Below the pieces are notes generated by a model. The model saw only the letters and a list, made by a program, of their open reading frames with translations. It made no database searches and had not been told where the DNA came from. Both the position numbers and the translations under genes were made by a program. A stretch of DNA of 61,229 bases, the filler included. It is 7 parts of 7 records of this genome, joined end to end, with 100 filler letters (N's around TTAATTAATTAA, not from the genome) between each part and the next. Parts side by side here need not be neighbours in the genome. Positions count along the whole stretch, not along the records: positions 1 to 6,353 come from SRR2962707_2095; 6 more parts are not named here. One strand, given 5' to 3'. Every line of letters starts with the position of its first letter. The stretch's first letter is position 1. This document shows positions 1 through 37,238 of the stretch, one piece after another.

Positions 1-316
1 GTTCCCTTGTTGTTCCGTTGTTGTTGTTCCCTTGTTGTGGTGGTTGTTTGTGGTTTGTTGCGGCGGGTCCTTTCTTTTTCTTTTCTTCTGCCCACTTAGC
101 CGGTTTTGCAGAAATAGCTCGTGGGGTTGCTTTTGCGTTTGAGTTTTATTTATTTTTTTATTTTTTGTTTCCGTGTTGTTATATTGTTTCTGCGCACGTT
201 TGCTCACTGCACCAAAGCCTCACGGAATCTTCAGACGCTGCCAGGGTCGTCGGAGCAGCTGTAGATCGTTGATCCGGGGGGTGCGTGCGTGGTGTCAAGA
301 CAGAAGCAACTACACC

Positions 317-1831
317 ATGTCGAACCTGTTTTCAAAAGAGAACATGCGCCGCTTCAAGCAGGGCTTCTTGGAGTCCATTGGGGTTGCGGACAACACACGC
401 GAGGAGGACAAGGAGTTTGAGCTAACTGTCCGGCGATTCAACGCAGCAGCCACGGGCGTTGGAAGCATCCACGCAAAGCTCAAGGACTACATTCGAACTC
501 AGGAGGAGCTGTCACTGTCGTCGGCGGCTGTGTACACTTCCCTCGCAAACCTTACAACCACGATTCCAACTGGGCCGTCGCCGCTGGAAGTGACTGCTCA
601 GCTGAAAACATGCGCCACGGCGCAGGAACTGCACACCCAGACGGTGTTTGGGCCGTCGAAAAAGTATTTCCAGCGAACGGTGCTGCGACCGTGTGAGATG
701 ATGGCGAAAAAGGTGACCATCATCGCAGCCCTGGTCACGAAATGCCGTGGGTTGTACGTTGATGTTGACGCTTTCAAGCACAAGTTTAGCTCGCAGAAGA
801 AGAAAGATCCCGCAGAGACGCAGGCGAAAACGCTGCAGTTCCGCCGCCGCCTGCAAGATTTTACCTCTGAGTTGAGCTCTTGCAAGACGCAGCTCTTTGC
901 CATGGTGGATCGTTTCGAAGCGGAGGCCAAACTACTGGTTGAGCACCTTGTGAGCGCATTCGTCGCTTACCAGGTGCACACCTCCACGCGCACGGGCGAC
1001 CTGCTGCAAGTTGTGGGCGAGCGTACGCCGAACGCTGGCGCCCACATGGTTGAGTTGGGATGTTTGACGGGCCGCGCTCGCGGGGCCAGTGTCTTGGTGC
1101 CGGATGCCGAAAAACCGAGGCCGAGCCTCAAGTTGCGAGAGTATCTCCAGGCACTGCTCTCCTCGCGCCCTCGTGCCTTGGCCCCTGCTGTGAAGCAGCC
1201 CTATCCGGCACAGTTGCCGTTCAGCTCGGAAATGTCGTTTGACCAGGTACACGGGGCAGTACGGCCCCCAACGATTCCTGCTTCTGCAGCTGAGCAACAT
1301 CAATCGCCCCGTCATCAGCAAGAGGCAGCTGCTCGGGCAGCGGCTGGAGGGTCTACTTCTTTGAAGCAAGCCGCCTCGAATGGCAGTCCATCAAGTGCGA
1401 CGGGGCCAAAAGCCTCGAAGTCAAGCAAATCGAAGGAGGTGTGGACGTCTGTCATGTTTTTTGGCTTTGCTTTTACGTACATTCTTTGTTTGTTTTTTCA
1501 TCACAACTTCGTCGGTTCACCCCACCGGTTTCTTGGCTTTTCGACTTGTGTGCGTCTAAGGCTCTGTACGTGATTGCCAAGTTCGATTACAAAAAGAAAG
1601 AAAACGACGAACTCACCATTTGCAAGGGTGACCAGATTCGAGTGCGTTTGTCTTGATATTGATTTTTCTTTTGGGTGTCCTGTGAAATGTGAGAAGGTGC
1701 GAGTGCTTACCTGGATTCATGGGTGTTTGCATGTGGGAAAGGTCATAAAAAAGCACGACTCAGGATGGTGGTATGGGGAAACACGCGGCGAGAAAGGTTT
1801 CTTTCCGAGCGCCTACACCACACAGGAGTAG
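317..1831 (+). CDS. BAR domain plus C-terminal SH3 protein (amphiphysin/endophilin-like), 3 exons: 317-1438, 1561-1641, 1742-1831
   Basis: Helical coiled-coil N-terminal half. Splicing GT-AG introns 1439-1560 and 1642-1741 (both phase 0) gives a complete SH3 domain: ALYVIAKFDYKKKENDELTICKGDQIR|VIKKHDSGWWYGETRGEKGFFPSAY. Confidence 0.85.
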
Positions 1832-2009
1832 CATTGAATGCGTGATACAAGTAGTTTGTAAATTGTGTCAATAATTTCTCGATACTCGGTGCTGTATGAA
1901 CTCGAGTCGAGTACAAACACAACATGTTGTTTGTTGTTTGAGTGGGCAGTTTTACAAATTTTGGGTGGATATTCCACCCTGAAAGATGATCAGATGATGG
2001 CACACGGTT

Positions 2010-3120
2010 TTATTGATGTCCTCGCAGCAAGTGTGTTTTATTGGGCGGGACGAATGGCGGCATGTCAGGGCAATAGTTCGGATCAGTTGGGTCAGTGGAT
2101 TTGAACCCAGCCAACCATGCATTGGCCTAAGACCATCACAGTAGTATTTGAAGAACAACGCACATACTGACAGTTGTTCTCGTCTCATGGATTCAGGAAT
2201 TTTCAAAAAAAACTGCGGAATGAAACGTACCAAGGTCTGTGGTGTGTGGGTAGCATTTTCTGCAAAGAGGGTCTCCATAAAGCAAGTTACAAAGCAGTCC
2301 GAAGAAACGTTGCCCTGGCACGGGGCGAAGCATGCCGGGTTCTCAGCCTCAATAACCTACAGGCGGCAAAGTTAAGTCAACAGGGACCACACAGAAAACA
2401 GTAGAGAGCAAGCATGCTGCTGCTCAGGCAAATGAACTTCCATTGCAGACAGCACGCAGACAAAACAGGCCAGCGTACGCGGTGCAGGTTGTCGTTCACA
2501 CACGAGGCATTGACTGTCTTGACCGTGTCAACGAGGCGCCATTGGCAGTCTTCCGTCGCTTCGTTGTCGCAGTCTCCCGCGGTCAGCGTGGAGAACCAGC
2601 TCCCGCCAAAATACTTCGAGGCCTGGAATTTCCACAAGTCAAACGTTGAGTTCCCGAAAGGCCGGCTGTAGCGGTCAGTGATGTTGGCGACACCGAGGTT
2701 CGCCACCGTGCTGGGACGGCAGTCCCACACATTCCCAGAAGCATCCGTTGGATTGCAGGCCGCATACTGTGAGCAACTGCGCTCGCCGCTGGGGCAGCCA
2801 CCAAAAGATGGGTTTACTTCGATGACGTACTCGCCATACACCGCCGCTCTGTCAAGATCAGCCAAGTTGTTGCACAGGGGCCAAGTTGGGTCGTGGCGGC
2901 AGGCCATTCTTGTCTGGAAGCGGTCCGCGATGTAAAAAAACACATCGCCGAGGACGTCTCCACTGTCCTTGTTGTCAAGCGTTGACGAGAGATTGTACGG
3001 ACGCAGTGCAAACACCGTAATGTTCGTGGCGTTTTCGGGGCGGTGCTGTGGAGGAGTACCAGCTGCCTCAACCGCGCTGCTGAACAGCGTGGCACTGAGC
3101 AGCACCCAACGCACGAGCAT
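2010..3120 (-). CDS. Secreted cysteine-rich protein of unknown function, 3 exons: 3120-2479, 2356-2231, 2126-2010
   Basis: Signal peptide MLVRWVLLSATLFSSAVEA. Introns 2357-2478 and 2127-2230 (GTACG...AG) splice in frame to ...LHR|VIEAENPACFAPCQGNVSSDCFVTCFMETLF...QTL|ANAWLAGFKSTDP...HQ*. Several N-glycosylation sequons. Confidence 0.75.
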
Positions 3121-3339
3121 TTTTGGATGCTATCAAGCGACAAGGTAGGCCTGTTCGCAGCTCCCAACCGTTTTTCCCGCTTCAAGCAATAGTGCAGAAA
3201 GTAAAAACAGCCCAATCATCCATTGTTCCTGTCGGAAAACAATTGAGAAAAGCAAGACTCGTTGAAGGCGTGAGGAGAGACCTGGGGTGAAAGCCTGTGG
3301 CTCCAGACTGAGGAAGATAACACCCCGCAAGGCACAAGA

Positions 3340-3497
3340 CACAAGAGACAGAGCGAGAGAGTTTCGAGAGGGAGAGAGTAGATCTACTCACAGTGGCAGA
3401 GAGAGTGAGACAACGAGAGCGCGAGAGAGAGCGACACAGAGAGAGCGCGAGAGAGAGCGAGAGAGAGCGACGGACAGAGAGAGAGCGAGAGAAAGAG
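3340..3497. repeat. (GA)n-rich imperfect microsatellite
   Basis: Direct reading (gagagagcgagagag...), upstream of the minus-strand secreted-protein gene. Confidence 0.9.
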
Positions 3498-4103
3498 GTG
3501 TGGTGCAACTTCTCTAGTACTACGTCGTTAAACTATCTAGAGTACAGTACATACACTTTTGAAATTTTGCATATTTTAAGTAATTCAAATGAGTTGCTCC
3601 ACCAGGTCTCGGTCAATTCTGCCAAAGCGCGATTCGAGTGGCGCACCCCACGCGCGAACGAAGGTCGAGTCTGCCTGGCAAAGTCTGAGAGGGGTGCGCT
3701 GTGGCGGGCACGAAGAGAAAGACAGATAATGATGGCGTGGAAAACCATGCGCCTTGCCGCGGTTGTTTGGGGTGAGGGCGACGTTGGGTGGCGTGGGAGG
3801 AGACGCGAAAGCGTTAGGCGGTAGGTCGTGGGACGCAGGGGCATCGCGAGGGGCAAGGAGTGTCGGAGTGCTTGGAGGGCTTGCCGCGTGGGGCTCTCAA
3901 TAATGACAGTGCAAGCATTTTGACGTCCAAACACATTATTGTGGATTCACAACACTTGCGTTATTTGTTGTTAAGTGCAAGTGCGAATGAGCCATTTCGA
4001 CACTTGTGTGAGGGTTGCCAAAGTCGTCCCAAAAAACCGGCGCTCAACGACTGAGCGCACGGCACACCGGTTGTCGCTGACGGCTGTGACACAAAGCTGC
4101 TGC

Positions 4104-6353
4104 TTACTTGGCGTTCATCTTGTCCATGACGCGTGCGAAAAGGACATCATCGGGGAGAAGCTCCTTTGTCACCGGCAGGGGCTTGGACACCCAGGTCTCG
4201 TTGATAAGATCGCGCCAGGTGATGTTGTGGTTGATGCTGTTGCGACCCCATGAGCCACAGCCCAGGGAGAAGGTCTGGCGCATGCCTGTGCAGAATACCA
4301 GTGCAGACATCAAAGTGAATTGCAGCCAACACGATTTCCAAAGTTCACGAATGAATGCAGTGAGCACAAAGCAAACAGCGCACACAACGCACCATTCCAA
4401 AGGTTGCCACTGTTGGAGGCAGCCTGAGGCTGGTTGACCATGACACGGGAGGTCTTGGTGTTCGCAGCCAACTTCATGATGTTTTCGTCACTCTTCGAGT
4501 AGATGCCGCAGCTATAAACACAAAAAGCAGGGAGGTTAAAAGTCAAAACAGCACGTCCGCGTTCGGAAAGTGGGACACAATTCAACAATGCTGGCAGGAC
4601 AGGCTCTGTACCTGTGGCCTTCACCCTGGTAGGACTGGATGTTGTTAGTGAGCTCGACGGCCTCGTCGATGTCCTTGGCGCGGTAAAGAGCCATGGTCAC
4701 GCTCATCTTCTCACCGGAGAAGGGGTGCTCTGGACCGTACCTTCGCCACACAGACCAACCAAAAACACAACGCCAGCGTTCATCCCATGCAATGTTCGAT
4801 GACATGCCAGAGCCATGGGGGCAAAGCTGGAACAAAGCATCCAGGCCGGGCAGACTACGTCAGTGTAGATAAAGTAATGCGCCAACGAACCCAGTCTCGG
4901 GAACGATGAAGAAGTTGGTGCCTTCAGGGATCTCAAAACCCGCCTTGGAAGCAATGAATTCCGGGGTTTGCGCCACAACTTCGGCGTTGATGTGACCATC
5001 CACCCACAAAACGTTCTGGAGCTTGGCCTTGGCATCGTCGTCCAAAACGTAGCCACCCTGAGCCACCAGCTTCTCAAGCATGGTGTCGTAGATCGGATCA
5101 AGCAGGATGACAGAGTTGTCGGCGGAGCAAGATGCAGCCAGATCCAGCGTCTTGGAGATGCGGATCTTCTCTGCAGCCTCATCAAGATCGGCCGTGTCGT
5201 CAACAGTGATCACAGCGTTGCCAACACCAACACCAAGAGCCGGGGTTCCACTCGAGTAAGCAGCGTTGACCATGGCACCACCACCAGTGGCCAAGATACG
5301 GTCGCAATGCTTCATGAGATAGTTGGTCTTCTTGACCTGCATCACATTGCAAGCACAGACGAGGGAATATTCATGCGGCAGAACTTCCGTGCACAATCAC
5401 ATGGGTGGTATTGTGTGTCCACGCAAAGCCATTTGTTCACAAGGCAAACGCACCGAAGGTTGCTCGATGGCAATAACAAGATCAGCAGGAGCACCCATCT
5501 TCACGATGGCATCACGCATCAGGTCCACAATGGTCTTGTTCGTCTGGGCAGCGCGGGGGTGGGCAGCCACGATGATGGAGTTGCGACCCTTGACGGCCGA
5601 GATGGCCTTGATGACGGGTGTGGCCTCGGGGTTGGTGGACGGAGACAGCGCACCAATCACGCCAACGGGCTTGGCAATCTGAATGCCAAGTGTTCACACG
5701 CGTTCAACTGCGAGGCCACACTTGGCTTTTGGGACTGCGAACACAAGAGGCACCAAACACCATACACAGAGAGATACACACCTTGACGATCTGGCGCTCC
5801 GGGATCTCCTCGATGATCCCCACCGACTTGTCGTCGATGATGTCCTGCAACGTAGCACGAGTCTTGCGGAAGATCTTCAGGAACTTGCCGTCATAGTTTC
5901 CGAGGCGCGTCTCGTCAACGGTCAACTGCGCGAGTTTCTTGGCGGTGTCTTCGCGAGCGACAGCGTACACCATAGCCGTAATCAAATCATCGACCTGGCC
6001 CACGCATAAAGTGAATGGCAATCAATCATGCACACACCCACACGCACATGCACACGCAGACACATCCGTGTAAGTCAAATCAACCGGTTTTTGTTGGGAA
6101 GAGGAGGCAGAAGCAGGCAGTTGAACACCTTCCACAACAGTGTGTGCGTGTGTGTATGTGTGTGTATGTATGTGTGTGTGTTCATTGACTTGCCGCTGAG
6201 ACAAAAAACAACATTTAGGTGAATGATGGATTACCTGCTCCTGCGTGTAGTTCTCGATCGCCTTGTTCGCAGCGCGAGAGCGCTCCACGAGCGCCAATAT
6301 CTCCTCGTTGGACTCGGGGCAGAAGTCAGAGAGCCAGCGGATGCCGAAGGCAG
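4104..6353 (-). CDS. CoA-acylating aldehyde dehydrogenase (ALDH family 20; sulfoacetaldehyde dehydrogenase SauS-like), 7 exons, 5' truncated by contig end
   Basis: Exons 6353-6235, 5994-5782, 5678-5454, 5336-4891, 4740-4612, 4511-4393 and 4285-4104 splice in phase to about 476 aa. Motifs: IAKPVGVIGALSPSTNP, ATGGGAMVNAAYSSGTPALGVGVGN, catalytic Cys in DLAASCSADNS, FSGEKMS, GHSCGIYS, SLGCGSWG. Confidence 0.9.
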
Positions 6354-6453
6354 NNNNNNNNNNNNNNNNNNNNNNNNNNNNNNNNNNNNNNNNNNNNTTA
6401 ATTAATTAANNNNNNNNNNNNNNNNNNNNNNNNNNNNNNNNNNNNNNNNNNNN
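6354..6453. other. Artificial contig spacer
   Basis: N44-TTAATTAATTAA-N44 (stop codons in all six frames). Confidence 0.98.
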
Positions 6454-12140: not shown

Positions 12141-12240
12141 NNNNNNNNNNNNNNNNNNNNNNNNNNNNNNNNNNNNNNNNNNNNTTAATTAATTAANNNN
12201 NNNNNNNNNNNNNNNNNNNNNNNNNNNNNNNNNNNNNNNN
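12141..12240. other. Artificial contig spacer
   Basis: N44-TTAATTAATTAA-N44. Confidence 0.98.
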
Positions 12241-18238: not shown

Positions 18239-18338
18239 NNNNNNNNNNNNNNNNNNNNNNNNNNNNNNNNNNNNNNNNNNNNTTAATTAATTAANNNNNN
18301 NNNNNNNNNNNNNNNNNNNNNNNNNNNNNNNNNNNNNN
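18239..18338. other. Artificial contig spacer
   Basis: N44-TTAATTAATTAA-N44. Confidence 0.98.
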
Positions 18339-25483: not shown

Positions 25484-27678
25484 TTAACGTGTTGTATGCC
25501 TATTCGCAAATTGTATTGGGAAAATGGACACATGAAGCTGGGTCGACGATTGGCTTGAGACATGCGAGAAAATGCAACTAAACATGGACGCGAGCGAGTC
25601 CCCTACCGATGAGAATTCAGCAGTGCTTTTTTCTTTGTCACTGGTGCGACTTGGAGAGTATGTGGTGGGGCCGTTCGGCACACTTTCAAATTCTGGCGTG
25701 AAGTTTGTCGGGCCTGACCTCCGCCGTGGACTTGAATACGTGGGCTTAACAAAAGCAGCACTTGCAGACCCAGTCCTGCGCCTGTTGGAAGGGGATTGCT
25801 TTTGTGCAGCTGCAATGTGCAGGTCAATGAGAGGGGCCAGACTTCCAGCGCGTTTGGGTGTCTTCGGTGGATCGTGCACTTTTTGGGTTGATGGGGATGA
25901 AGTGATATTGTTTTCATGAAAGGGTGCAGAGGATGCGAATCTCGTGCCAAAGGGACTCGCGGCTCCGATCGAATCATTGGCAGCTTCTGCGGCAGATGCA
26001 GCATCGGTACTCAGTGAAGTGTCTCCGTGTTCGCCAGCCTCGGCATCGTGTTGGCGCTTGCGAGCCACTGCCTTTGCGACGAGCGATTCGTCTGGAGGCT
26101 GAATCACTCGCTCAGTGACTTCTGTCTCCTTTGTCCGGTGGTTGTAGAAACACAATTTACTTGTGTCGGGTGCCAAAAAGCAGGATTTCACTGCTCCCGT
26201 TGCGCGATTGACAAACACAAATCTGTATTGAAGGGTAAACAGGTGCAGCTCAGGAATGGGCGTGTAGCTCTCGCCAGCACTAAATTGAGTAAAAACACAC
26301 GTCGGCAAGATCACCACGACACTACCACTTACTGCTCGAGAACAGGATCATAATGTCGGACAAATCCGGCAAAACTTATGAATTCGGTAACTTCTGCTAT
26401 TTTTTGCCTGAGCAAAGCGTTGAACATAGCGCGGTGCAACTTTTTCGAATATTTTTTCTCAAAAACTTGCATGCCGGCAGGGGAAGACGTCGATGTATCA
26501 CTTCCTGCAACCACGCGAGCTGTTGGTGACACTCGCGCCGTGTCAATTGTTATTTCACCGAGCTTTGCTCGGCTGTTTTCAGTCTCAGGCAAACCCTCGC
26601 CGCCACCGCTGGTTCCGGCTTTTCCGCGTGATGTGGTTGCATTGTAAGACTCTTGAAAATCAATCTCAATTCCCATGGACTGACCGGGCGCTGATTCGAT
26701 AAAGAGTTCTGACACGCGAAAGTCGACATCGGGAGTTGACTTCGGACGTGCGACGACGAACTCTTTACTTTGATCGGGCGGCAACCCTTGGATAACATCA
26801 AGCAGCCGATCGACGCCAGCACCTCGCACATCGACACCACTGACACTCAGAAGCAGGTCGCCCAACAACACCCCATCACGCTGAGCACGCCCATCGTTTT
26901 CCACATAATCGACAAACAGGTCATCGCCCCCGCCCAGCTTACTAAAAAAAAGGCAATGCAAACGAAAATACACAACGAATGAAAAAAACCAGCAAATTGA
27001 TCGACGGGCAAGTTCGCGGAGTTGACCTTGTTGCTCAACAAAAATCAGCCAAGGAGTCACGCACGTGTTGAAAGACATCCCGCTGAGTTGCCCAGGTTCA
27101 CTTCGAGTTACAACCACCTCGTACGGCACTTTCGTCGGATGCCCCCCAGGATGGCGCTCAATGATCCACTCTCGCCCTTCATCGCCGGGCGGCAAGCTTG
27201 CAACCACATCCCCGACTTCATCCAGATCGAGACCCCTCAGTGAGCGCCCATCGACCGCCACGAGCGTGTCCCACATTCGGGGCCCACTGCCACCCTGGTG
27301 CTGCTGCTGCTGCTGCTGATAAGTGGCGATGGCCTTTGCAGCTGCACTGCCTTCTGCAATATCAGTGACGTACACACCGCCCCGGCACTGAGCCGCATCG
27401 TTGTCCACTTTCTCCCACAGAGACGCCCCCAGCCGGCTGCCTCGAACAACAAACGCCACAGAGCCTGTTGGTGCGGCTCGCCCGCGGTGCAGTGAGAAAA
27501 CGGTAACTTTTCGCCCGGATTGAAAAAGTCGCCCTCGCTCGAGCGCTGCGTCCAGATCCGAGTGGCTTGTCGCGTGGAGCACAGAAACGCCGTTCACAGC
27601 GCCGAGCACGTCGCCTGCACGGGCCCCTCCCGCTGCAGCCGGGGTGTTCGGCAGCACTTTTTTTACGACGAAGGGCAT
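25484..27678 (-). CDS. Multi-PDZ domain protein (about 3 PDZ-like units), multi-exon; both ends uncertain
   Basis: PDZ-like segments VKKVLPNTPAAAGGARAGDVLGAVNGVSV, VYVTDIAEGSAAAKA...DTLVAVDGRSL and LFVDYVENDGRAQRDGVLLGDLLLSVSGVDV. In-frame intron 26942-27064. Confidence 0.7.
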
Positions 27679-27819
27679 GGCTGGCTGGTTTTCAAGCGTG
27701 CAAAACAGCTCAGGACCCGCGGTCGCGGAGAGGAGCCCGCTCGTTCATCGTTCTCATCGTCGTGCGTAATTTCGCTTGGGGAATGGAAACTGATGGCAGG
27801 AAGAAAAACGCAGAAACAG

Positions 27820-27857: not shown

Positions 27858-27957
27858 NNNNNNNNNNNNNNNNNNNNNNNNNNNNNNNNNNNNNNNNNNN
27901 NTTAATTAATTAANNNNNNNNNNNNNNNNNNNNNNNNNNNNNNNNNNNNNNNNNNNN
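27858..27957. other. Artificial contig spacer (eukaryote/bacterium boundary)
   Basis: N44-TTAATTAATTAA-N44. Confidence 0.98.
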
Positions 27958-28003
27958 TACCGCCGTGAAAGGGCGGTGTCCTAGGCCACTAGACGAAGGG
28001 GAC
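27958..28003 (-). tRNA. tRNA-Glu(TTC), 5' portion, truncated by contig end
   Basis: Reverse complement GTCCCCTTCGTCTAGTGGCCTAGGACACCGCCCTTTCACGGCGGTA matches gammaproteobacterial tRNA-Glu. Confidence 0.93.
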
Positions 28004-28311
28004 CCGGACTTGTCGGCCAATCCCGTTGCGGGACTGCCCTGTCAAGCGGCGCGTAGTCTAGGAATCCGGGCCGGCAGCGTCAAGGGGAAATTCCCCCGGT
28101 CGACACCGTTCGTTCATAATCCGTTCAATCTCGGCGATTCCGACGGTTTTCCCCTGACCGGGCGGTCCCCTGTTGACCCTTCCGCGACACTGCTATATGC
28201 CTGTTACCCCAGCCGCCCGTCGGATTCACGGGTTGAGATCCGCCTGCGGCCGGCCCGCTTTCGAGTGGGCCGCACCAGGCCCAACATCACAATAGAGACC
28301 GGGAGATCCCA

Positions 28312-28962
28312 ATGACCATCAAACTGTATGGCGCCATGCTGTCGCCGTTCGTGCGTAAAACCCGCGTGGTACTGGCCCTCAAAGGCGTGGAACATGAGAC
28401 CGTCAACGTGGACCCGCGCAACGCGCCGGACTGGTATCGGGACCTCAACCCGCTGGGACGCATCCCGGCACTGGACTACGACGGCCAGATTCTCGCCGAT
28501 TCCGGGGTGATTTGCGCTTTTCTGGAGAAGAAACACCCCGAGCCGTCCCTCTACCCGGAGGATCCCTACGAGTACGCCCGCACCCTGTGGTTCGAGAAAT
28601 TCGGCGACTACGAGCTGGGCGTCAACTGTACCTTCGGCGTGTTCTTCAACCGGGTGGTGCGGCGTCTGATGGGCAAGGAAGTGGATGAAGCGGCGGCGCA
28701 GAAAGCGCTGCAGGGCGCGGTGCCACCGCTGCTCGAGTACCTGGATCGGGAACTGGAAGGCAAGACCTACTTTGTTGGCGAACGGCTCACCGTCGCCGAT
28801 ATCGCCGTGGCCAGCCAGTTGGTGAACTTCCAGCACGCCGGTGAAGGGGTCGACCAGTATCCCAACCTGGCCGCCCACAAGGAACGCCTGCACGCCCTGG
28901 AGCCGTTCACCCAGACCATAGCCAAGGAAAGCGGCTTCCTCACCAAGGTCCTCGGCGGCTGA
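28312..28962 (+). CDS. Glutathione S-transferase family protein
   Basis: SPFVRK, LNPLGRIPAL, LADSGVICAFLE and YFVGERLTVADIA motifs; RBS GGGAG. Confidence 0.92.
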   Translation: MTIKLYGAMLSPFVRKTRVVLALKGVEHETVNVDPRNAPDWYRDLNPLGRIPALDYDGQILADSGVICAFLEKKHPEPSLYPEDPYEYARTLWFEKFGDYELGVNCTFGVFFNRVVRRLMGKEVDEAAAQKALQGAVPPLLEYLDRELEGKTYFVGERLTVADIAVASQLVNFQHAGEGVDQYPNLAAHKERLHALEPFTQTIAKESGFLTKVLGG

Positions 28963-29493
28963 TCAGGGCGGCCCTCCAGCCCCCTCGCCCGTGCCCTCCC
29001 CGGTGTCCTCCACGGACACCAGGGCGGCACGGCCATCGGTGGCGATACGCACCCGCGCCAGACCGCCCTGCCGTAATCGCCGCTCCAGTTCCAGCGCCTT
29101 ATCCTTTGGCGCGAAATAGGCTTCGATACCGTATTCCACCGTCACCGAACCCACCCGCACCGCGCGGATATGCCCGCGAATAAAATCGCCCGGCGGCGGT
29201 GAATAACGGGTATCAACGGCTTTCCACACCCGCCCTTTCCGGCGCAACTGCACATACACTTCCCGCCCTACCCGCGGCACTCCCACTTCCGGCATCGGCG
29301 CCTCACTGATGTCGTAGCGCAGGCGGGCATAGTTGCCGCGCAACAAATCACGCGGATCCACCGGCACCGTGCGCAGCACCACTTCCTTGCCGAACCAGAC
29401 CGGATACCGCGCATAGCCCAGCAAACCGAGCAGCACCAGAACCTGCAACACCAGCGCCGCCACCAGGGCGCGCAGCCGCCAGCGCCTAGTCAT
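28963..29493 (-). CDS. GDYXXLXY-domain membrane-anchored protein
   Basis: N-terminal TM, PVDPRDLLRGNYARLRY and VEYGIEAYF. ATG overlaps the end of the upstream gene. Confidence 0.85.
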   Translation of the reverse strand: MTRRWRLRALVAALVLQVLVLLGLLGYARYPVWFGKEVVLRTVPVDPRDLLRGNYARLRYDISEAPMPEVGVPRVGREVYVQLRRKGRVWKAVDTRYSPPPGDFIRGHIRAVRVGSVTVEYGIEAYFAPKDKALELERRLRQGGLARVRIATDGRAALVSVEDTGEGTGEGAGGPP

Positions 29494-30730
29494 GGGCCAC
29501 CTCCGGATCGCGCTGGCGCCAGTAGCGGGCGCCAGCGTAGAGAATGCCGGCCATGACCAGGAACAACAGGGCCGCCCCCAGGTAATCTCCAATCAGATCG
29601 ACATAACGCAACAGCGCCAATACCGCCACCGTGCCCAAACCGGCGAAGAAACGGCGCTGGTCGGCGCGCAGCAATCCCTGGCGTATCCAGGCCATGGCCA
29701 CCAGCAGAACCACCAGATTGGCCGCCACGGTCCAGTACAGGCTCTGTTCCGGCCGGCCCAGACCATGCGCCAGCAGCACCCCGGCCAGCGCCAACCAGGG
29801 CAGGATGCCACGGGGCTTGAGGGCGATCGCCGCCAGCAGCAGCGGCAGCGCCGCCCACAGCCCGGGATCCAGCCAGCCCCAGTGGCTGTGCAGATATTCT
29901 TTCCAGAGGTCCTCGAACGTCAGCGGCAACAGCACCAGCAACGACAACCGTCCAAGCCACGGCAAGGGTGCCCAACGCGAGTCCCCGCGCAGCTCCAGCC
30001 GCTGGCAGAGCACCTGAGCCAGGACCAGAAGAGCAAGATTGAAGGTCAGATGGCCAGCCCGCCAATGGGGCCCGAAATCGGTGTGGAACACCCAGGACAA
30101 CATCAGGTTGAGCCACAACACCAGAGCCGCCAGCACCGGCAGCATCACAACATTGGAATGGCGGCGCCAGGCCAGCCAGCCGGCCACACCGAGAAACACG
30201 ATGCCAGCCCAGGGTGGCGAGAACGGGGTTTCCATCACCATCCACAGGGCGGTGAGCGCCACCAGCAGCAGTGTCACCAGCAGGCGCCGGGAGAAAAAGG
30301 CCACCGGCAACGTGCCGATCATCCACAACAGCACGCCGTTGGGGAAATGCTCGCCAAGGTGGTACATCTGCCCCACCAGCATGATCGAAGCGCCATAGCA
30401 GACCGCGCCGAGAAACAGCCAGCCGCCCCCCTCGCCATGACGCCCCCAGCGCCACACCCCTACCCCGTTGGTGGCCACGGTGAGGGCCAGCAGAGCGGCG
30501 AAGCGCACGCCCCGGGGCAGACCGTCCCAATGGGCGGACACCACCAGCAGCAGCGCCAGGCCGATGAACAGCAGAGCACAGGCGGTCAGCACTCGCGCGC
30601 CCAGGGAGCCGCCACTGGCTTCCAGACCGTTGCCATAACGGGCCAGAATGCGCCGGGCCTGATCCTCCTCGATCAGCCCCTCGGCCAGCCACTGTTGCAT
30701 CTCCCGGCGCAGAGCGTCTTTACGTATCAC
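29486..30730 (-). CDS. DUF2157 domain polytopic membrane protein
   Basis: WLAEGLIEEDQARRILARY N-terminus, GASIMLVGQMYHL motif and many TM segments. Typical partner of GDYXXLXY genes. Confidence 0.85.
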   Translation of the reverse strand: MIRKDALRREMQQWLAEGLIEEDQARRILARYGNGLEASGGSLGARVLTACALLFIGLALLLVVSAHWDGLPRGVRFAALLALTVATNGVGVWRWGRHGEGGGWLFLGAVCYGASIMLVGQMYHLGEHFPNGVLLWMIGTLPVAFFSRRLLVTLLLVALTALWMVMETPFSPPWAGIVFLGVAGWLAWRRHSNVVMLPVLAALVLWLNLMLSWVFHTDFGPHWRAGHLTFNLALLVLAQVLCQRLELRGDSRWAPLPWLGRLSLLVLLPLTFEDLWKEYLHSHWGWLDPGLWAALPLLLAAIALKPRGILPWLALAGVLLAHGLGRPEQSLYWTVAANLVVLLVAMAWIRQGLLRADQRRFFAGLGTVAVLALLRYVDLIGDYLGAALLFLVMAGILYAGARYWRQRDPEVAHD

Positions 30731-30805
30731 GTTGTTCCCAATCCTTTTGGTGCGGGCTTCCTGAGCATGCTAGCACGCTGGGTGCGCGCGGCTCTCTGCA
30801 ACCCG

Positions 30806-30877
30806 CTGTAGCAGCCTGCCTTGCGGTCGAATAGACTCCTGCGTCCGAAAATTCGCCTGCGGGGCAGGCCCCTACAG
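30806..30877. repeat. Inverted pair of GTAG-type REP-like sequences (REP doublet)
   Basis: CTGTAGCAGCCTGCCTTGCGGTCGAAT (30806-30832) versus reverse complement of 30851-30877, CTGTAGGGGCCTGCCCCGCAGGCGAAT. Confidence 0.65.
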
Positions 30878-30921
30878 AGACTTCGAATCAACACCGGGCG
30901 AACCGCGACATTTTCAAGCCG

Positions 30922-32409
30922 TCAAAGCGGTAACCCCAGCCGCCGTGCTTCCATGCGGCGCAGGAATTCCAGCATCACCTGCCGGTACAGGTCCTCGCCC
31001 AGCCACAGGTCCTCGACGCCGGCATCGATGTTGGGATTGTCGTTCACCTCCATCACCACCACCTGATCGCCGGACTGCTTCAGGTCCACGCCGTACAGGC
31101 CGTTGCCCATCAGCCGGGCGGCCTTGAGCGCCACTCTCAGCACCTTCGGCGGCACTTCGCGGATCGGTACCGTGCGCGCGTTGCCGGAGGCGGTTTTGCC
31201 GCCGTCCTTGTGATGATAAATCTGCCAATGCCCCTTGCTCATGAAGTACTGGCAGGCAAACAGCGGCCGGTTGTTGAGCACGCCGATGCGCCAGTCGTAA
31301 TCGGTGTACATAAAAGCCTGGGCCAGCACCACGGCGGATTGTTTCAGATAGCCATGCAGGGCGTTGCCCAGCGCCTCGCGGTCCTCCACCTTGCTAATGC
31401 CGCGGGAGAAACTGCCGTCCGGGATCTTCAGCACCATCGGCAGTCCCAGTTCCCCGATCAGGCTGTCCACCTGTTCGGCGGTGTCGCTGAACACAAAGGC
31501 GGTGGGCGGCACCGGCACGCCATTGGCCTGCATCAGTTCCGCCAGATAAATCTTGTTGGTACAGCGCAGAATCGAGCGCGGATCGTCGATCACCACCATG
31601 CCTTCCTGCTCCGCCTTGCGGGCGAACTGATAGGTATGGTGGTCAATGGCGGTGGTCTCGCGAATGAACAGGCCGTCGTATTCACCCAGGCGGGCGTAGG
31701 CGTCGCGGCCGACGATTTCCACCTTGATGCCCAGTTGCCGGCCGGCCCGTGCGAATCGCTTCAAAGCGGCGCGATTGCTCGGCGGCATGGCCTCCTCGTC
31801 GTTCACCAGCATGGCCAGGTCATAGCGTTCACCACGCCGCCGGCGCGGGCCGCGCCAGACACGGGCGTTGAACTGCTCCAGGGCACGGGCGAAGGCATCT
31901 TCCTGGGCACCCTTGACCTGTTTCAGACTCGGCGTCTTGATCGCCTCCAGGGTCCACCGGTCCCGGCGCCGGAACGACACCCGCAGAATCGGACACGGCA
32001 ACTGGTCAAAGATCTGCCGCGCCAGTTCCGCCAGCCCTTCCTGCTCGGTTTGGCCGAAGTAGATATTGAACGTCACCTTGGTGGCATCGCCGCCCTGCTT
32101 CTTCATCGCCTTGTCCAGCGCCGACTCGAAATGCTCGAAGTGCAGGCCGTACAGCGCCTTGTAACTGAGGTCGTTGACCGTGCGTACCGAGGGCATGACG
32201 CGCTGACCGCGGGCCTCCGCCAGCAGCGAACAGTAGTAGCCGGGGGACAGGTATTTGTAGCTGCGGCACAGATTGATCACCTGCACTTTCTTGTCGGTGC
32301 AGACCGGCTCGGAAGCCTGCAGGTAATCACGGGCGGACAGCAGATTGCGGGCGGGATAGTACGCCGCCCAGTCCGCCGGGTCGTCCACCAGGATAATGAC
32401 TTGGCTCAT
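30922..32409 (-). CDS. RimK-family ATP-grasp ligase with N-terminal RLAN-type extension
   Basis: INLCRSYKYLSPGYYCSLLAEARG, FIRETT, VLKIPDGSFSRG, YGVDLK and EVNDNPNID motifs. Confidence 0.88.
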   Translation of the reverse strand: MSQVIILVDDPADWAAYYPARNLLSARDYLQASEPVCTDKKVQVINLCRSYKYLSPGYYCSLLAEARGQRVMPSVRTVNDLSYKALYGLHFEHFESALDKAMKKQGGDATKVTFNIYFGQTEQEGLAELARQIFDQLPCPILRVSFRRRDRWTLEAIKTPSLKQVKGAQEDAFARALEQFNARVWRGPRRRRGERYDLAMLVNDEEAMPPSNRAALKRFARAGRQLGIKVEIVGRDAYARLGEYDGLFIRETTAIDHHTYQFARKAEQEGMVVIDDPRSILRCTNKIYLAELMQANGVPVPPTAFVFSDTAEQVDSLIGELGLPMVLKIPDGSFSRGISKVEDREALGNALHGYLKQSAVVLAQAFMYTDYDWRIGVLNNRPLFACQYFMSKGHWQIYHHKDGGKTASGNARTVPIREVPPKVLRVALKAARLMGNGLYGVDLKQSGDQVVVMEVNDNPNIDAGVEDLWLGEDLYRQVMLEFLRRMEARRLGLPL

Positions 32410-32428
32410 CGGGGTTCCATTGAGAAGG

Positions 32429-32458
32429 CTAAGGACGCCGGATGTCCGGCGTCCTTAG
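32429..32458. other. 13-bp perfect hairpin between the dehydrogenase and RimK-like genes
   Basis: CTAAGGACGCCGG-ATGT-CCGGCGTCCTTAG. No poly-U tail, so a terminator role is uncertain. Confidence 0.6.
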
Positions 32459-32462
32459 AATA

Positions 32463-32488
32463 TCGCGGCTCGTGGGCCGCTCCTACAG
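32463..32488 (-). repeat. Single GTAG-type REP-like sequence
   Basis: Reverse complement CTGTAGGAGCGGCCCACGAGCCGCGA. Confidence 0.6.
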
Positions 32489-32514
32489 AAACCGCCATGC
32501 CCGGTCCGAGCCGG

Positions 32515-33690
32515 TCAGTTGCCCTGGTAGACCACGCGGTAGATGGCGCCGGCGTGATCGTCGGCGATCAGCAAACTGCCGTCGGCGGCCTGCATGACGT
32601 CCGCCGGACGTCCCCAGCGGGTGCCGTCCTCACGCAGCCAGCCGCTGATGAATGGCTGGTACCCGGCAACCTTGTCGATGCCTTCCACGCCGACCCGGGT
32701 GACCCGGTACCCGGCCGGCGTGCTGCGATTCCAGGAACCGTGCTCGGCGATGAAGATGTCACCCCGGTAGTCCTCGGGAAATTGCTCCCCGGTATAGAAC
32801 GTCATACCCAGCGGCGCGTGATGCGCCGGCATGGTTTGCATCGGCATGGCGAATTCACCGGGATCATGGTCCTTGCCAAACTCCGGATCCGGCACCGTGC
32901 CACCGTGGATAAACGGATAGCCGAAGTGTTCGCCGTCCTCGCGCACCCGGTTGAGTTCTTCCGGCGGGATCTCGTCGCCGAGCATGTCGCGGCCATTGTC
33001 GGTGAACCACAACTGCCCACTGCGCGGATGGAAATCAAACCCCACCGAATTGCGCACTCCGCGAGCCACCGTGGTCATTTCCCCCGAGTCCGGGTCATAG
33101 CGTTGGATGGTGGCGTAGGGTTCTTCCCGGTTGCAGATGTTGCACGGTGCCCCCACCGGCACGATCAGTTTCCCTTCGCGGTCAAACGCCAGATACTTCC
33201 AGCCGTGATGGGAATCGGAGGGAAATTGGTCCGTCACCAGCTCCAATGCCGGCGGATCGTCCAGATGATCGAGAATGTCCGGCAGCGCCAGAATCCGGTT
33301 CACCGCCGCCACGTAGAGGGTGCCGTCGCGATAGGCGATCCCGGAGGGCATGTTCAGCCCTTCCGCCAGCACCCAGGTGCGCTCGGCGCGGCCATCGCCA
33401 TCGGCGTCGCGGATCGCGTAGACCTTGCCCTCGTCACGGGAGCCGGCGAACACGGTGCCATCCTCGGCCTGGGCCAGTTGCCGGGCGTTGGGAACATCGT
33501 CGGCGAACACCGTCAGGGTGAAGCCCTCGGGCAGGGTCAGGCTGTCCACCGGCAGGGACCCGGCCATGACGGGAGCGGCAAAACCGAGTAGCAGGCCGGC
33601 CAGCCAGCGCCGGCCGTGAATGGCGGGAAGATCGCTATGAGCCCGCGGCGTCCTTCCGCGCGCCGGGGTGTCCTGCTTTTTCCAAGGCAT
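32515..33690 (-). CDS. PQQ-dependent sugar/sorbosone dehydrogenase family beta-propeller (periplasmic); start uncertain
   Basis: [59 protein letters not shown] and WGRPADV motifs; signal-like [17 protein letters not shown]. Confidence 0.85.
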
Positions 33691-34093
33691 CTTGAACCTC
33701 CGGAGGCATGTAGGTCTCATCGTGTTTGGCGAGCACTTCTTCCGCCTCGAACCGTTCCCGGCTCACCAGCGTGCCGTTGGCGACGATACCCTGCCCTTCA
33801 CGGAACAGGTCCGGCAGGATGCCCTGGTAATGGACGGTGAAGGTGCCCTTGCCGTCGGTGACATCGAAAGTCACGTCCAGAGTGTCGGGGTCGCGTACCA
33901 CCGATCCCTCCATAACCAGACCACCCACACGCATTTTAGTGCCCACCGGCGCTTCACCGTTGACCACCTGCTGCGGGGTGAAAAACAGATTGATGTTCTG
34001 GCGCAGGGCGTACACCGCCAGAGCGGTGGCCAGGGCCAGCCCCAGAAACACCGCCAGCACCACGATCAGGCGCTGTTTACGAACCGGATTCAT
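33635..34093 (-). CDS. ccmE: Cytochrome c maturation heme chaperone CcmE
   Basis: [10 protein letters not shown] and LAKHDETY motifs. Confidence 0.96.
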
Positions 34094-34274
34094 GCTTAAC
34101 CTCCCGGGTTTCCCGTCGCCACTGGCGAGCCACGTCCTGGCGCACCCGCGCCAGCTTGCGCGCCGCCAGCACCATATTGATCACGATCAGCAGCGCACAG
34201 ATACCGTAAGCGCTCCAGACATAGGGCCCGTGCCGGCCCATGGCCAGAAATTCCGCGAAGCTGTCGAAATACAT
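34077..34274 (-). CDS. ccmD: Heme exporter protein CcmD
   Basis: [24 protein letters not shown]; located between ccmC and ccmE. Confidence 0.92.
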
Positions 34275-35023
34275 CAGTGCCCCTCCACCAGTTTGCGTAC
34301 CCAGCCGCTGCGGCGCTCCCGGCTCAGCACTTCGGCCCGGGCCCGCATCAGTACGTTGGCGGCGTACAGCAGCCACATGCCCAGCATGCTGATCAGCAGC
34401 GGGTACTTCATGGCCGGGTTGATGGAGGATTCGCTGAACAGGTTCAAGGTCGCCCCCTGATGCAGGGTGTTCAGCCACTCCACCGAATACTTCACGATCA
34501 CCACGTTGATCACCCCGACCAGGGCCAGCAACGAGGCGGCACGGGCGGCCTGGCGGGGATCACGGATGGCGGACTGCAACACCATCACGCCGAGATACAT
34601 GAACAGCAGGATCAGCATCGAGGTCAGGCGCGCGTCCCACTGCCAGTAGGTGCCCCAGGTGGGCTTGCCCCAGATCGCGCCGCTGATCAGGGACACCGCC
34701 GCCAGCACGGCACCGAACGGCGCCAGCGCCTTGAGCATGACCTCGGCCATTTTCATCCGCCAGACCAGGCACACCAGCCCGGCCACGCCCATGGCGATGT
34801 AGCCCATCAGGGCGCCGCTGGAAGCCGGGACATGCAGATAGATGATGCGATAGCTGTCACCCTGGTAACGCTCCACCGGCGCGTAGGCCAGCCCCCATAC
34901 CAGGCCGATGGCGAGAATGATCAGCGCCAGCGGCCACAGCCACGGCAGCACGGCATCGGCGAACCGGTAAAAGTAGCGGGGCGAGCCCAGTTGGTGATAC
35001 CAGCGTTTCAGAGTGTTCCACAT
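34274..35023 (-). CDS. ccmC: Heme exporter protein CcmC
   Basis: WWD-type motif WGKPTWGTYWQWDARLTS, plus YLHVP and NTLHQ. Confidence 0.96.
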   Translation of the reverse strand: MWNTLKRWYHQLGSPRYFYRFADAVLPWLWPLALIILAIGLVWGLAYAPVERYQGDSYRIIYLHVPASSGALMGYIAMGVAGLVCLVWRMKMAEVMLKALAPFGAVLAAVSLISGAIWGKPTWGTYWQWDARLTSMLILLFMYLGVMVLQSAIRDPRQAARAASLLALVGVINVVIVKYSVEWLNTLHQGATLNLFSESSINPAMKYPLLISMLGMWLLYAANVLMRARAEVLSRERRSGWVRKLVEGH

Positions 35024-35082
35024 AACTTCGACTCTATTTTTTTGTCGTCGGCCCCGGCGGTTGTCGTCATCGACCCCGGCGG

Positions 35083-35754
35083 TCAGTCTCCGGCGCTGAT
35101 ACGCAGGCCCATGGCCACCGCCAGTGGCCCCAGACTCAGCGCCAACGCCAGCAACGCGCCCAATACCGCCAGCAACCCCTGGGTGGGAGAGCCGTCCACG
35201 GCGGCGCGCACCACACCGGCGCCGAACACCAGCACCGGAACATAAAGCGGCAGAATCAGCAGCGCCAGCAAAATGCCGCCGCGATTCAGGCCCACGGTCA
35301 ACGCCGCGCCAATGGCGCCGATCACCGTCAGCGTCGGCGTTCCCAGCAGCACGCTGTAAGTCAGCGTGGCCAGGGCCGGCACCGGCAGCTGCATCATGTA
35401 GCCCAACAACGGCGCCATCAACGCCAGCGGCAAGCCGGTCAGCAGCCAGTGCGCCAGCAGCTTGGCCGAAACCGGCAGCACCGACACCACCGGCGCGGTC
35501 AGCATCTGATCCAGGGCACCGCTTTCCTGGTCACGGCGGAACAGCCCGTCCAGCGACAGCATCACCGCCAGCAGCGCCGCCACCCAGACCACACCCGGCG
35601 CCACCAGCGCCAGCAATTCCGGCTTCGGCGACAGCCCCAGCGGGAACAGGCTGACCACCACCATGAAAAAGAACAGCGGCTGCACCATATCCGCCGGGGA
35701 ACGCCAGATCAGGGTCAGTTCCCGGCGCAGGGTCGCCCACCAGGGTCCGCTCAT
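35083..35754 (-). CDS. ccmB: Heme exporter permease CcmB
   Basis: LFPLGLSP, APGVVWVAALLA and LILPLYVPVLVFG motifs. Confidence 0.95.
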   Translation of the reverse strand: MSGPWWATLRRELTLIWRSPADMVQPLFFFMVVVSLFPLGLSPKPELLALVAPGVVWVAALLAVMLSLDGLFRRDQESGALDQMLTAPVVSVLPVSAKLLAHWLLTGLPLALMAPLLGYMMQLPVPALATLTYSVLLGTPTLTVIGAIGAALTVGLNRGGILLALLILPLYVPVLVFGAGVVRAAVDGSPTQGLLAVLGALLALALSLGPLAVAMGLRISAGD

Positions 35755-36356
35755 GCCGGCGCCTCCGTGCCCAGATGCAGCCGCCGCACATCATCGCCGA
35801 CCCGGTGGTGGGAGGTATACAGCACTAAAGTGCCGTTGCCGGCGGCATCGCGTATGCGCTGGTCCAGGCGCGTCACGCCGTTCTGGTCGATGGCGGTGTA
35901 GGGCTCGTCCAGCACCCACACTTTTTTCGGCGCCAGCCACAACCGCGCCAGCGCCACCCGGCGCTTCTGCCCGGCGGAGAGATGCGCCGCCGGCACGTCT
36001 TCGAAGCCGTACAGGTCCACCGCGTCCAGGGCCGCGTCCACGTCCCCCGGCTGGTTGTTCAGCGCGGCACTGAAACGCAGATTCTCACGGGCGGTCAACT
36101 CTTCACGCACGCCGGGCTGATGCCCCAGATAGAGCAAATCCGGCGCCAGCGGCGAATGCCAGCGCACCTGGCCTTCATAAAAACCGTGCAGCCCTACCAG
36201 AATCCGCAACAAAGTGGTCTTGCCCGCCCCGTTGGCGCCGGTAATCTGCCAGATCTCGCCGGCGCGGGCCTGGAACGCCAGATCACGGAACAGCACGCGC
36301 TCATCCCGTTCGCACTGGAGCTGCCGGACGGTCAGACGAAGGGAGTCACTGCTCAT
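35751..36356 (-). CDS. ccmA: Heme exporter ATPase CcmA
   Basis: Walker A GANGAGKTT, LSAGQKRRVALARL and LDEP. Confidence 0.95.
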   Translation of the reverse strand: MSSDSLRLTVRQLQCERDERVLFRDLAFQARAGEIWQITGANGAGKTTLLRILVGLHGFYEGQVRWHSPLAPDLLYLGHQPGVREELTARENLRFSAALNNQPGDVDAALDAVDLYGFEDVPAAHLSAGQKRRVALARLWLAPKKVWVLDEPYTAIDQNGVTRLDQRIRDAAGNGTLVLYTSHHRVGDDVRRLHLGTEAPA

Positions 36357-36463
36357 GGGGCTCCTGATCAGGAAATAACAGGCGTTGGGCTCGGTTCGGC
36401 GGCGCAGTATAGCATGTATTTCCGCTATGATTGGTGGGACAAAACAGCATACGGGGAGAGCCC

Positions 36464-37133: not shown

Positions 37134-37160
37134 CCTTTTCTTTGCTCTATTATGGTGCAT

Positions 37161-37219: not shown

Positions 37220-37238
37220 CCACGAAAAGGACCTCGTC

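Follow-up and report, generated by a model that had tools for sequence, protein, structure and literature searches.

A bacterial-type gene for a CoA-acylating aldehyde dehydrogenase is transcribed and spliced in a microbial eukaryote, as seen in contigs of a presumed RNA run (X2). The product is probably not a sulfonate enzyme, because its closest bacterial relatives reside in operons for valine breakdown, and a new eukaryotic organosulfonate pathway, as put forward in the initial annotation, it is not. The explanation favoured here, with modest confidence, is that of a transferred, nuclear gene which gained six introns and encodes a probably mitochondrial, CoA-acylating analogue of (methyl)malonate-semialdehyde dehydrogenase, acting at the end step of valine catabolism in place of the ALDH6-type MmsA.

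Gene structure and contig composition

The window (the whole stretch of DNA analysed, 61,229 nucleotides) is not continuous genomic sequence, as it is made of seven contigs glued by N44-TTAATTAATTAA-N44. At least three of the seven are bacterial. Contig 5 matches a bacterial genome at 99% identity, bacterial genes are present in contigs 6-7, and in contigs 2-4 a PDZ domain is the sole Pfam match in the large ORFs scanned. The aldehyde dehydrogenase had been assigned to the same contig as a BAR-SH3 gene. This is valid for positions 1-6353, and does not extend to the rest of the window, because the window consists of joined contigs and contigs 5-7 are bacterial. Features of this region are listed in Table 1.

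Table 1. Features of the 6,353-base contig and of the adjoining artificial joint
Feature	Positions	Strand	Description
BAR + SH3 gene, eukaryotic neighbour	311..1831	+	BAR 47 bits, SH3 halves split by intron; introns ~1439-1560, ~1642-1741
Convergent neighbour gene	2127..3129	-	ORF, signal-peptide-like start; two introns (~2127-2230, ~2357-2478), CT..AC joints in X2
3' untranslated stretch	4067..4103	-	reaches the X2 contig end (record 10)
Exon 7 + stop	4104..4285	-	TAA 4104-4106; NF047625 412-460 of 464; no alcohol-dehydrogenase domain after
Intron 6, 107 nt	4286..4392	-	GT..AG, phase 1; joined in X2
Exon 6	4393..4511	-	begins directly past the His-Ser relay codons; NF047625 369-405
Intron 5, 100 nt	4512..4611	-	GT..AG, phase 2; joined in X2
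Exon 5	4612..4740	-	NF047625 326-367; 3' codons = His-Ser proton-relay pair
Intron 4, 150 nt	4741..4890	-	GT..AG, phase 2; joined in X2
Exon 4, 148 full codons + 2 bases	4891..5336	-	catalytic Cys-Ser (Cys codon 5127-5129); NF047625 177-323, 162 bits
Intron 3, 117 nt	5337..5453	-	GT..AG, phase 0; joined in X2
Exon 3, 75 residues	5454..5678	-	NF047625 99-172
Intron 2, 103 nt	5679..5781	-	GT..AG, phase 0; joined in X2
Exon 2, 71 residues	5782..5994	-	Lys/Arg-rich helix K..K..RKTR; NF047625 28-98
Intron 1, 240 nt	5995..6234	-	GT..AG, phase 0; (CA)n-type repeat inside; X2 joint 5992>6233 (cut +2)
Exon 1, partial	6235..6353	-	in frame from 6351, 39 residues; ends at contig edge, start codon not seen
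Artificial joint, non-genomic	6354..6453	.	N44, TTAATTAATTAA, N44; six such joints in the window

The six introns, all GT..AG and on the minus strand, had been correctly placed by the initial annotation, and their in-phase removal joins seven exons into one open frame of 476 residues closed by TAA. Transcript evidence for the junctions comes from X2, listed only as a presumed RNA run, which belongs to a second study on the same coded organism. Record 10 of X2 (1646 nt) omits 107, 100, 150, 117, 103 and 240 bases at the introns, with CT..AC on the plus strand, and all six introns are thus absent from one contig. The same contig reaches ~178 nt 5' of position 6353. The protein stops after the aldehyde dehydrogenase domain, as originally described, and the X2 contig ends at 4067. 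The gene had also been called intact; this is not shown, because exon 1 hits the contig end at 6353 without a start codon.

A gene of bacterial origin might enter such an assembly by contamination or chimerism, and would then not be eukaryotic. The mixture of eukaryote-like and bacterial contigs in the window, and the ~80% identity of the protein to bacterial proteins, are in line with this reading. On the other hand, the six GT-AG introns break the frame and have been spliced out in X2 contigs, two spliced eukaryotic genes reside on the same contig, and the co-assembled bacterium G001 offers neither a match to the 6353-base contig nor a homologue of the aldehyde dehydrogenase at E<=1e-30. Contamination, already dismissed in the initial annotation, is all but ruled out by the spliced X2 contigs. 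As for the neighbours, a Pfam scan of the contig locates the BAR domain at 311-1435, and the GT..AG joints of the BAR-SH3 gene are spliced in X2 record 9. Four further splice joints were found in X2 for the two neighbour genes. No Pfam match was found for the convergent gene.

Relatives and origin of the gene

The protein closely matches intronless proteobacterial proteins, many of which are labelled 'sulfoacetaldehyde dehydrogenase' by JGI; the likeness to proteins so annotated had been noted from the beginning, and amounts to 77-84% identity. Exon 4 is 79-84% identical to the 120 matches listed, and 115 of these, aligned over more than 400 residues, are 76.6-84.1% identical to the whole protein (median 80.1). 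Identity to 80 genome loci, mostly from Sphingomonadales and Halieaceae, measures 72.7-81.5%. Relatives are numerous: in species-representative genomes, 574 of 601 pattern matches proved to be relatives, as did 535 of 599 stretches in a metagenome scan. The best 80 from the metagenome scan all show at most 80% identity, and no eukaryote-type, intron-bearing locus was recognized among them.

The window protein and 11 related clusters form one clade, with support of 100/99 in one tree and 99 in another. The N-termini in the 11 clusters, ~20-35 residues long, abound in Arg, Ser and Leu, and acidic residues number 0-3 among the first 30. Such N-termini resemble mitochondrial presequences, and the clusters are probably eukaryotic. 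Inter-domain transfer is a sensible reading, because a spliced eukaryotic gene of bacterial type is found together with a single eukaryote-like clade. The part of the initial annotation which traced the gene to marine proteobacteria goes further, as the donor is unproven. Nesting of the eukaryote clade inside bacteria lacks statistical support, as a tree with all close bacteria together and the eukaryote clade outside was not rejected by the AU test (p-AU 0.725; 0.405 in a second test). Since the tests allow this topology, no claim is made for Sphingomonadales as the donor.

Active site and the sulfoacetaldehyde label

The exons match NF047625, a model of 464 positions, in a colinear fashion and far beyond chance (Table 1). 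The protein belongs to the CoA-acylating aldehyde dehydrogenases (PF00171; SauS/SucD/AdhE-N/EutE group), as denoted by Cys255 and His376-Ser377 (numbering of the partial protein) and by colinearity over model positions 28-460. The nearest solved structure is SucD, the acylating succinate-semialdehyde dehydrogenase of Clostridium kluyveri (8cei, 330 bits; see also PDB 8CEJ and 8CEK), with AdhE behind. The Cys-Ser pair, three Lys and the His-Ser pair are aligned with Cys242-Ser243, Lys63/66/70 and His364-Thr365 of SucD, and the catalytic Cys reported initially is therefore present. Lys70 and Ser243 of SucD bind the distal carboxyl group of the substrate; their counterparts are Lys83 and Ser256, which places the protein in the acid-aldehyde (SucD-type) subgroup. 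From this match an acidic substrate is likely, but not which one.

An acylating succinate-semialdehyde dehydrogenase (succinyl-CoA reductase), or an enzyme for another acidic aldehyde unrelated to valine, would account for both the nearest structure and the conserved carboxyl-binding Lys and Ser, and the valine operon is missing downstream in 12 of the 56 bacterial loci described below (L009 and L045 are examples). Such an enzyme is nevertheless unlikely. The window clade is distinct from SucD and has extra Arg residues (RKTR, GMRQT); the Arg in GMRQT is invariant and specific to the clade, being missing from the SucD-like and SauS rows of the alignment. Gene context also differs from that of SucD, and operons and the complementary distribution of MmsA favour (methyl)malonate semialdehyde as the substrate.

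As an acetylating acetaldehyde dehydrogenase resembling the N-terminal half of AdhE, the protein would serve fermentative or ethanol metabolism in a protist. AdhE occurs in anaerobic protists, its N-terminal half is homologous to the window protein, and ten relatives (77-84% identity) score 407-432 bits on the AdhE N-half model and 343-372 bits on the EutE-type ACDH model. These scores are lower than those of the same relatives on the SauS model. AdhE-type rows carry other residues where the window clade has Cys-Ser and RKT, the C-terminal iron-type alcohol dehydrogenase domain of the bifunctional enzyme is missing, and the bacterial context is one of aerobic valine catabolism. The acetaldehyde reading is thus very improbable.

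The initial annotation assigned the protein to SauS (EC 1.2.1.81), which interconverts sulfoacetaldehyde and sulfoacetyl-CoA and would provide the eukaryote with a step of organosulfonate metabolism. SauS, known from Cupriavidus necator and Bilophila wadsworthia, resembles the window protein in superfamily, length and stand-alone architecture. NF047625, the NCBIfam equivalog for SauS, is the best-scoring named model: across six of the seven exons it ranks first among NCBIfam models, or a close second in the case of exon 6, and it is top for all ten close relatives tested. The catalytic Cys-Ser is common to both groups, as is the RKT motif, found in the window clade and in the sequences above the SauS cut-off. 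The assignment fails at the curated cut-off of 600 bits, since the ten relatives score 490-516 bits; exon scores of the window protein sum to ~391 bits, a figure obtained from per-exon scores and not from one score of the spliced protein. In a class sample of 301 genomes SauS scores are bimodal (20 at 624-814 bits, 7 at 474-566), and the carrier of the window-clade gene, at 504.6, falls in the lower group. Sequences above the cut-off are 36-43% identical to the window clade, and six representatives form a clade of their own (support 99), the window protein being in another. According to PMC10413351, where NADP-binding residues of SauS are described in Fig. S6, identity among characterised SauS enzymes amounts to only 37%, and sequence distance alone cannot therefore exclude sulfoacetaldehyde.

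Gene context also separates the two groups. CoA-ligase, AMP-binding, TctA/TctC or TPP-enzyme genes were found at 6 of 8 loci above the cut-off, none of which carries valine genes. A Pfam scan of 8 bacterial loci of the window clade revealed no sulfoacetate-type genes; bacterial relatives lie in valine operons, with neither a CoA ligase nor a TTT transporter nor Xsc next to them. Xsc above the cut-off was found in none of 5 carrier genomes, and likewise in none of 14 controls, in a search run without a positive control and hence uninformative by itself. A true SauS is quite unlikely, and organosulfonate metabolism, which had been deduced from that assignment, is left unsupported.

Valine operons and the proposed role

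Gene order was analyzed at 56 bacterial loci having at least 4.5 kb of downstream sequence. An acyl-CoA dehydrogenase gene follows on the same strand at 44 loci, and at 40 it is accompanied by an ECH_2 gene; these correspond to valine-catabolism operons headed by relatives of the window gene. Crotonase and HIBADH-type genes were found downstream at 38 and 35 of the 56 loci, respectively. Among the operon neighbours, NCBIfam models identified 3-hydroxyisobutyrate dehydrogenase, at 407 bits over a cut-off of 291.6, as well as 3-hydroxyisobutyryl-CoA hydrolase, at 348-391 bits over one of 274.

In the distal valine pathway, the final step is assigned to MmsA (ALDH6; TIGR01722, cut-off 448.5 bits), a decarboxylating enzyme which yields propionyl-CoA. 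MmsA has the role proposed here for the window clade, including the first position in the operon, but belongs to another branch of the aldehyde dehydrogenase fold and is not an orthologue of the window protein. TIGR01722 is absent from the exon matches at E<=0.01, and the protein is not a member of this family. Among the tested genomes, the two genes exclude each other. None of 5 carrier genomes has MmsA above the cut-off, and no locus exceeds 283 bits. Among 81 genomes of the order of one carrier, MmsA is above the cut-off in 77, and the window-clade gene resides in the carrier only (MmsA in 77 of 80 non-carriers).

The explanation favoured above may be detailed as follows, its functional steps leaning on gene order in bacteria. 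A gene from a lineage of proteobacterial type would have reached the nucleus of a microbial eukaryote, and six spliceosomal introns would have been added after the transfer. The product would be a CoA-acylating aldehyde dehydrogenase that stands alone and belongs to the bacterial SauS/SucD/AdhE-N superfamily, directed to mitochondria by a presequence encoded in the missing 5' part, to judge from eukaryote-type relatives. It would oxidize methylmalonate semialdehyde, and/or malonate semialdehyde, to the acyl-CoA in the last step of valine catabolism, replacing ALDH6-type MmsA, to which it is unrelated; its bacterial relatives appear to replace MmsA in the same way. The SauS-like sequence would follow from the substrates, because sulfoacetaldehyde and malonate semialdehyde are isosteric.

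If the explanation is true, hundreds of database proteins labelled 'sulfoacetaldehyde dehydrogenase' are mislabelled, considering the 574 relatives in species-representative genomes, and estimates of sulfonate cycling in environments which build on that label are inflated. The gene would also provide a clean case, spliced in a presumed RNA run, of a bacterial metabolic gene settled in eukaryotes, having gained in the window lineage six introns and apparently a mitochondrial address too, and an enzyme universal in branched-chain amino-acid catabolism may have been displaced.

A more specific form of the proposal is tentative, and rather doubtful. The enzyme may be a non-decarboxylating methylmalonate-semialdehyde dehydrogenase which forms methylmalonyl-CoA directly, spread in proteobacteria with the operon and passed once into eukaryotes, where it would work in mitochondria in place of ALDH6. 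In the literature surveyed, mostly outside subscription journals, neither a eukaryotic SauS-like gene, nor the valine-operon clade, nor a natural dehydrogenase forming methylmalonyl-CoA was found. With such an enzyme, propionyl-CoA carboxylase would be bypassed, and valine breakdown would be spared a CO2 fixation step as well as the ATP and biotin.

Structure and residence of the gene

A spliced eukaryotic gene on the minus strand of contig 1 (1-6353) encodes an acylating aldehyde dehydrogenase with a complete catalytic set. All six introns start with GT and end with AG, and their removal leaves one open frame of 476 residues, so that the introns and in-phase frame of the initial annotation are borne out by the sequence. 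Contrary to the initial annotation, the gene is not shown to be intact: exon 1 meets the contig end at 6353 with no start codon, and the 5' end is truncated. Single exons match NCBIfam model NF047625 (SauS, acylating sulfoacetaldehyde dehydrogenase) in strict order (28-98, 99-172, 177-323, 326-367, 369-405 and 412-460 of 464), and this colinearity validates the junctions.

X2, a run of the same coded organism from a different study that is presumed to be RNA but not on record as such, contains a 1646-nt contig which, aligned to 1-6353, skips 107, 100, 150, 117, 103 and 240 bases. The skips (CT..AC on the plus strand) coincide exactly with the introns, and 6/6 junctions are thus joined in one contig, which stops at 4067 and reaches about 178 nt past 6353. 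A second X2 contig lacks two GT..AG introns of the plus strand neighbour and two CT..AC introns of the convergent minus strand gene. Every stretch skipped in X2 is retained in X1, the probable source run. Since boundaries are canonical at 10/10 joints across three adjacent genes, the X2 pattern is the one expected of spliced RNA.

The plus strand neighbour encodes a BAR domain and an SH3 domain interrupted by an intron. Given this neighbour and the splicing of the adjacent genes, the enzyme gene is resident in a eukaryote, as initially proposed. Bacterial contamination is excluded, since the closest genome searched, that of the bacterium G001 (4.4 Mb, 100% complete), matches contig 5 but not contig 1 and encodes no homologue of the enzyme at E<=1e-30. 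The convergent gene has no Pfam match; it and the BAR-SH3 gene are merged in one transcript-type contig, suggesting that their 3' ends overlap. X1 contigs break at the GA/CT-rich repeat on contig 1, which is of a dispersed microsatellite type; their summed depth there is about 39,000, and loose ends are numerous.

Six identical joints divide the window into 7 contigs. The joints are artificial, and 'same contig' claims spanning any of them are void. Contigs 1-4 (GC 0.53-0.55) look eukaryotic; on contigs 2-4, Pfam recognises no domain in several ORFs of 400-1250 residues. Contigs 5 and 7 (GC 0.64) and contig 6 are bacterial. Contig 6 carries flagellar flgE/flgK and adenylate cyclase; flagellar, TruD and cation-efflux genes were found on contigs 6 and 7. 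Over its full 10,977 bases, contig 5 shares 99% identity with G001, a match explaining most of the 29% of words common to window and G001. A G001-type bacterium is co-assembled with the eukaryote, and the window is therefore a mixture of a eukaryote and at least one bacterium.

Coordinates of features in the window
Feature	Coordinates	Strand	Remarks
Stop codon of the enzyme gene	4104-4106	minus	TAA
Convergent gene	2127-3129	minus	signal-peptide-like start, two spliced introns
GA/CT-rich simple repeat	3393-3604		
ORF with PDZ domain	26332-27744	minus	contig 4, Pfam
Contig 5	27958-38934		
Artificial joints	6354-6453, 12141-12240, 18239-18338, 27858-27957, 38935-39034, 54182-54281		44 N, TTAATTAATTAA, 44 N

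Relatives and origin

A search with the 148 residues of exon 4 gave 4042 matches, of which the best 120 show 79-84% identity; these 120 proteins measure 302-500 residues (most 472-478) and in many cases are labelled 'sulfoacetaldehyde dehydrogenase' (JGI) or Sphingomonadales 'aldehyde dehydrogenase family protein' (NCBI). For the window protein, identity with the 115/120 aligning over >400 residues ranges from 76.6 to 84.1% (median 80.1). Among species-representative genomes, relatives are encoded at 574/601 pattern matches; the 80 best, mostly from Sphingomonadales, Halieaceae and other Pseudomonadales-type bins, show 72.7-81.5% identity to the window protein. Spliced coding DNA and bacterial genes are 74-76% identical. 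Contigs assigned to Bifidobacterium, Cryomorphaceae and Klebsiella pneumoniae bins also carry close homologues (L023, L070 and L072); the L070 operon is of Halieaceae type (72-86% identity), and the three contigs look mis-binned.

Eleven further 90%-identity clusters (P0001, P0011, P0014, P0021, P0037, P0116, P0274-P0277, P0312) open with a stretch of 20-35 residues in which Arg, Ser and Leu abound; their first 30 positions include 0-3 acidic residues, versus 2-6 in over-long bacterial calls. Most reside on 1.5-2.1 kb contigs; two are uninterrupted ORFs on 9.4 and 41 kb contigs. By their composition, these N-termini are probably mitochondrial presequences, and the proteins eukaryotic. The nearest 50%-identity representative, P0124, is a protein of 515 residues with 56% identity, encoded on a 272-kb contig. 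Its N-terminus is extended by about 50 residues of acidic, low-complexity sequence that include a KRRK run, and it may represent a second, non-mitochondrial eukaryotic lineage of the subfamily.

In a 75-row tree (C20 mixture) the window protein and six eukaryote-type sequences form one clade (SH-aLRT 99). In a 54-row tree 12/12 eukaryote-type rows fall in one clade (100/99), placed inside sets of 28 and 34 rows made otherwise of Sphingomonadales (95/89, 95/91). A single origin of the eukaryote clade is well supported. The nesting is not secure, because a tree holding all close bacteria together is not rejected under LG+G4 (p-AU 0.725), where it has the higher likelihood, or under C20 (p-AU 0.405). 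As the family is overwhelmingly bacterial, the source was probably a bacterium, and the proposed horizontal transfer is supported. Transfer of bacterial metabolic genes to protists is a known kind of event, and the enzyme superfamily is known. Within the literature searched, a eukaryote-wide sub-clade with presequence-like N-termini seems new, as do six introns in this lineage, at least two relatives being apparently uninterrupted.

SauS-like genes and the distal valine pathway

The NF047625 cut-off is 600 bits. Ten close relatives score 490-516 bits with this model, 407-432 with AdhE and 343-372 with EutE-type ACDH. Above-cut-off representatives are only 36-43% identical to P0014, and six of them form another clade in the 75-row tree (99), distant from that of the window protein. 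Among 301 genomes of the class of one carrier (a genome bearing the clade gene), scores fall into two groups separated by a gap, 624-814 bits in 20 genomes and 474-566 in 7; the carrier scores 504.6.

Eight above-cut-off loci feature succinyl-CoA-ligase-type subunits (4), an AMP-binding ligase (1), TctA/TctC transporter genes (3) and a TPP enzyme (2); valine genes were found in none, and 2/8 also lack ligase, TctA/TctC and TPP genes. The sulfoacetate clusters of Bilophila and others, as excerpted from PMC10413351, match these neighbourhoods; Fig. S6 of that paper bears on NADP binding.

For the bacterial relatives of the window protein, same-strand genes up to 7 kb away were counted at the 56 loci whose downstream sequence spans 4.5 kb or more. 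An acyl-CoA dehydrogenase is found in 44/56, together with an ECH_2 gene in 40/56; a crotonase occurs in 38/56 and a HIBADH-type gene in 35/56. One further locus (L037), left out of the count, has valine genes upstream on the other strand. A Pfam scan of 8 such loci gave the same valine-type picture in 6. In NCBIfam, the neighbours exceed the cut-offs for 3-hydroxyisobutyrate dehydrogenase (407 bits against 291.6) and 3-hydroxyisobutyryl-CoA hydrolase (348-391 bits against 274). The neighbourhood is the distal valine pathway minus methylmalonate-semialdehyde dehydrogenase (MmsA), whose place is taken by the SauS-like gene, and gene order separates above-cut-off SauS from this clade. Within the literature searched, placement of this large clade of 'SauS-labelled' proteins at the MmsA step in valine operons seems new.

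Canonical MmsA (TIGR01722) is above cut-off in 0/5 carrier genomes (best 283 bits) versus 4/14 controls, and in 77/81 genomes sampled from the order of one carrier, which alone among the 81 has the clade gene at E<=1e-150. The difference between 0/5 carriers and 77/80 non-carriers (hypergeometric p ~2e-6, ignoring relatedness among genomes) agrees with the SauS-like gene standing in for MmsA. Overall, the intron-containing gene is confirmed with corrections and transfer is supported; scores, clade and gene order speak against SauS identity, and a role in organosulfonate metabolism is unsupported, the bacterial relatives residing with valine genes.

Active site and predicted substrate

Among solved structures, Clostridium kluyveri SucD, acylating succinate-semialdehyde dehydrogenase (8cei, 330 bits), comes nearest, ahead of AdhE. 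In SucD, according to the excerpted text of PMC10249356, Cys242 is the nucleophile, His364-Thr365 a proton relay, and the distal carboxyl is held by Lys70 together with Ser243. The window protein features Cys255-Ser256, His376-Ser377 and Lys76/79/83 at the aligned places; the catalytic Cys of the initial annotation is thus Cys255, aligned with Cys242. The RKT motif around Lys83 is common to true SauS; the window clade has additional Arg residues in RKTR (nearly invariant) and GMRQT (invariant). Conservation of carboxyl-binding residues makes an acidic aldehyde the likely substrate, and methylmalonate or malonate semialdehyde would fit both active site and gene order. Sulfoacetaldehyde is a sulfonate isostere of these semialdehydes.

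Valine breakdown is mitochondrial in eukaryotes. The full protein would bear a presequence and enter mitochondria, and could there use CoA and NAD(P)+ to turn (methyl)malonate semialdehyde into an acyl-CoA, either methylmalonyl-CoA or propionyl-CoA. In Table 1, as excerpted from PMC10249356, the 'K70R' primer seemingly alters the first Lys of D-K-V-A-K-C, by chain numbering not residue 70; all three Lys are kept in the window protein, and the comparison is independent of this numbering.
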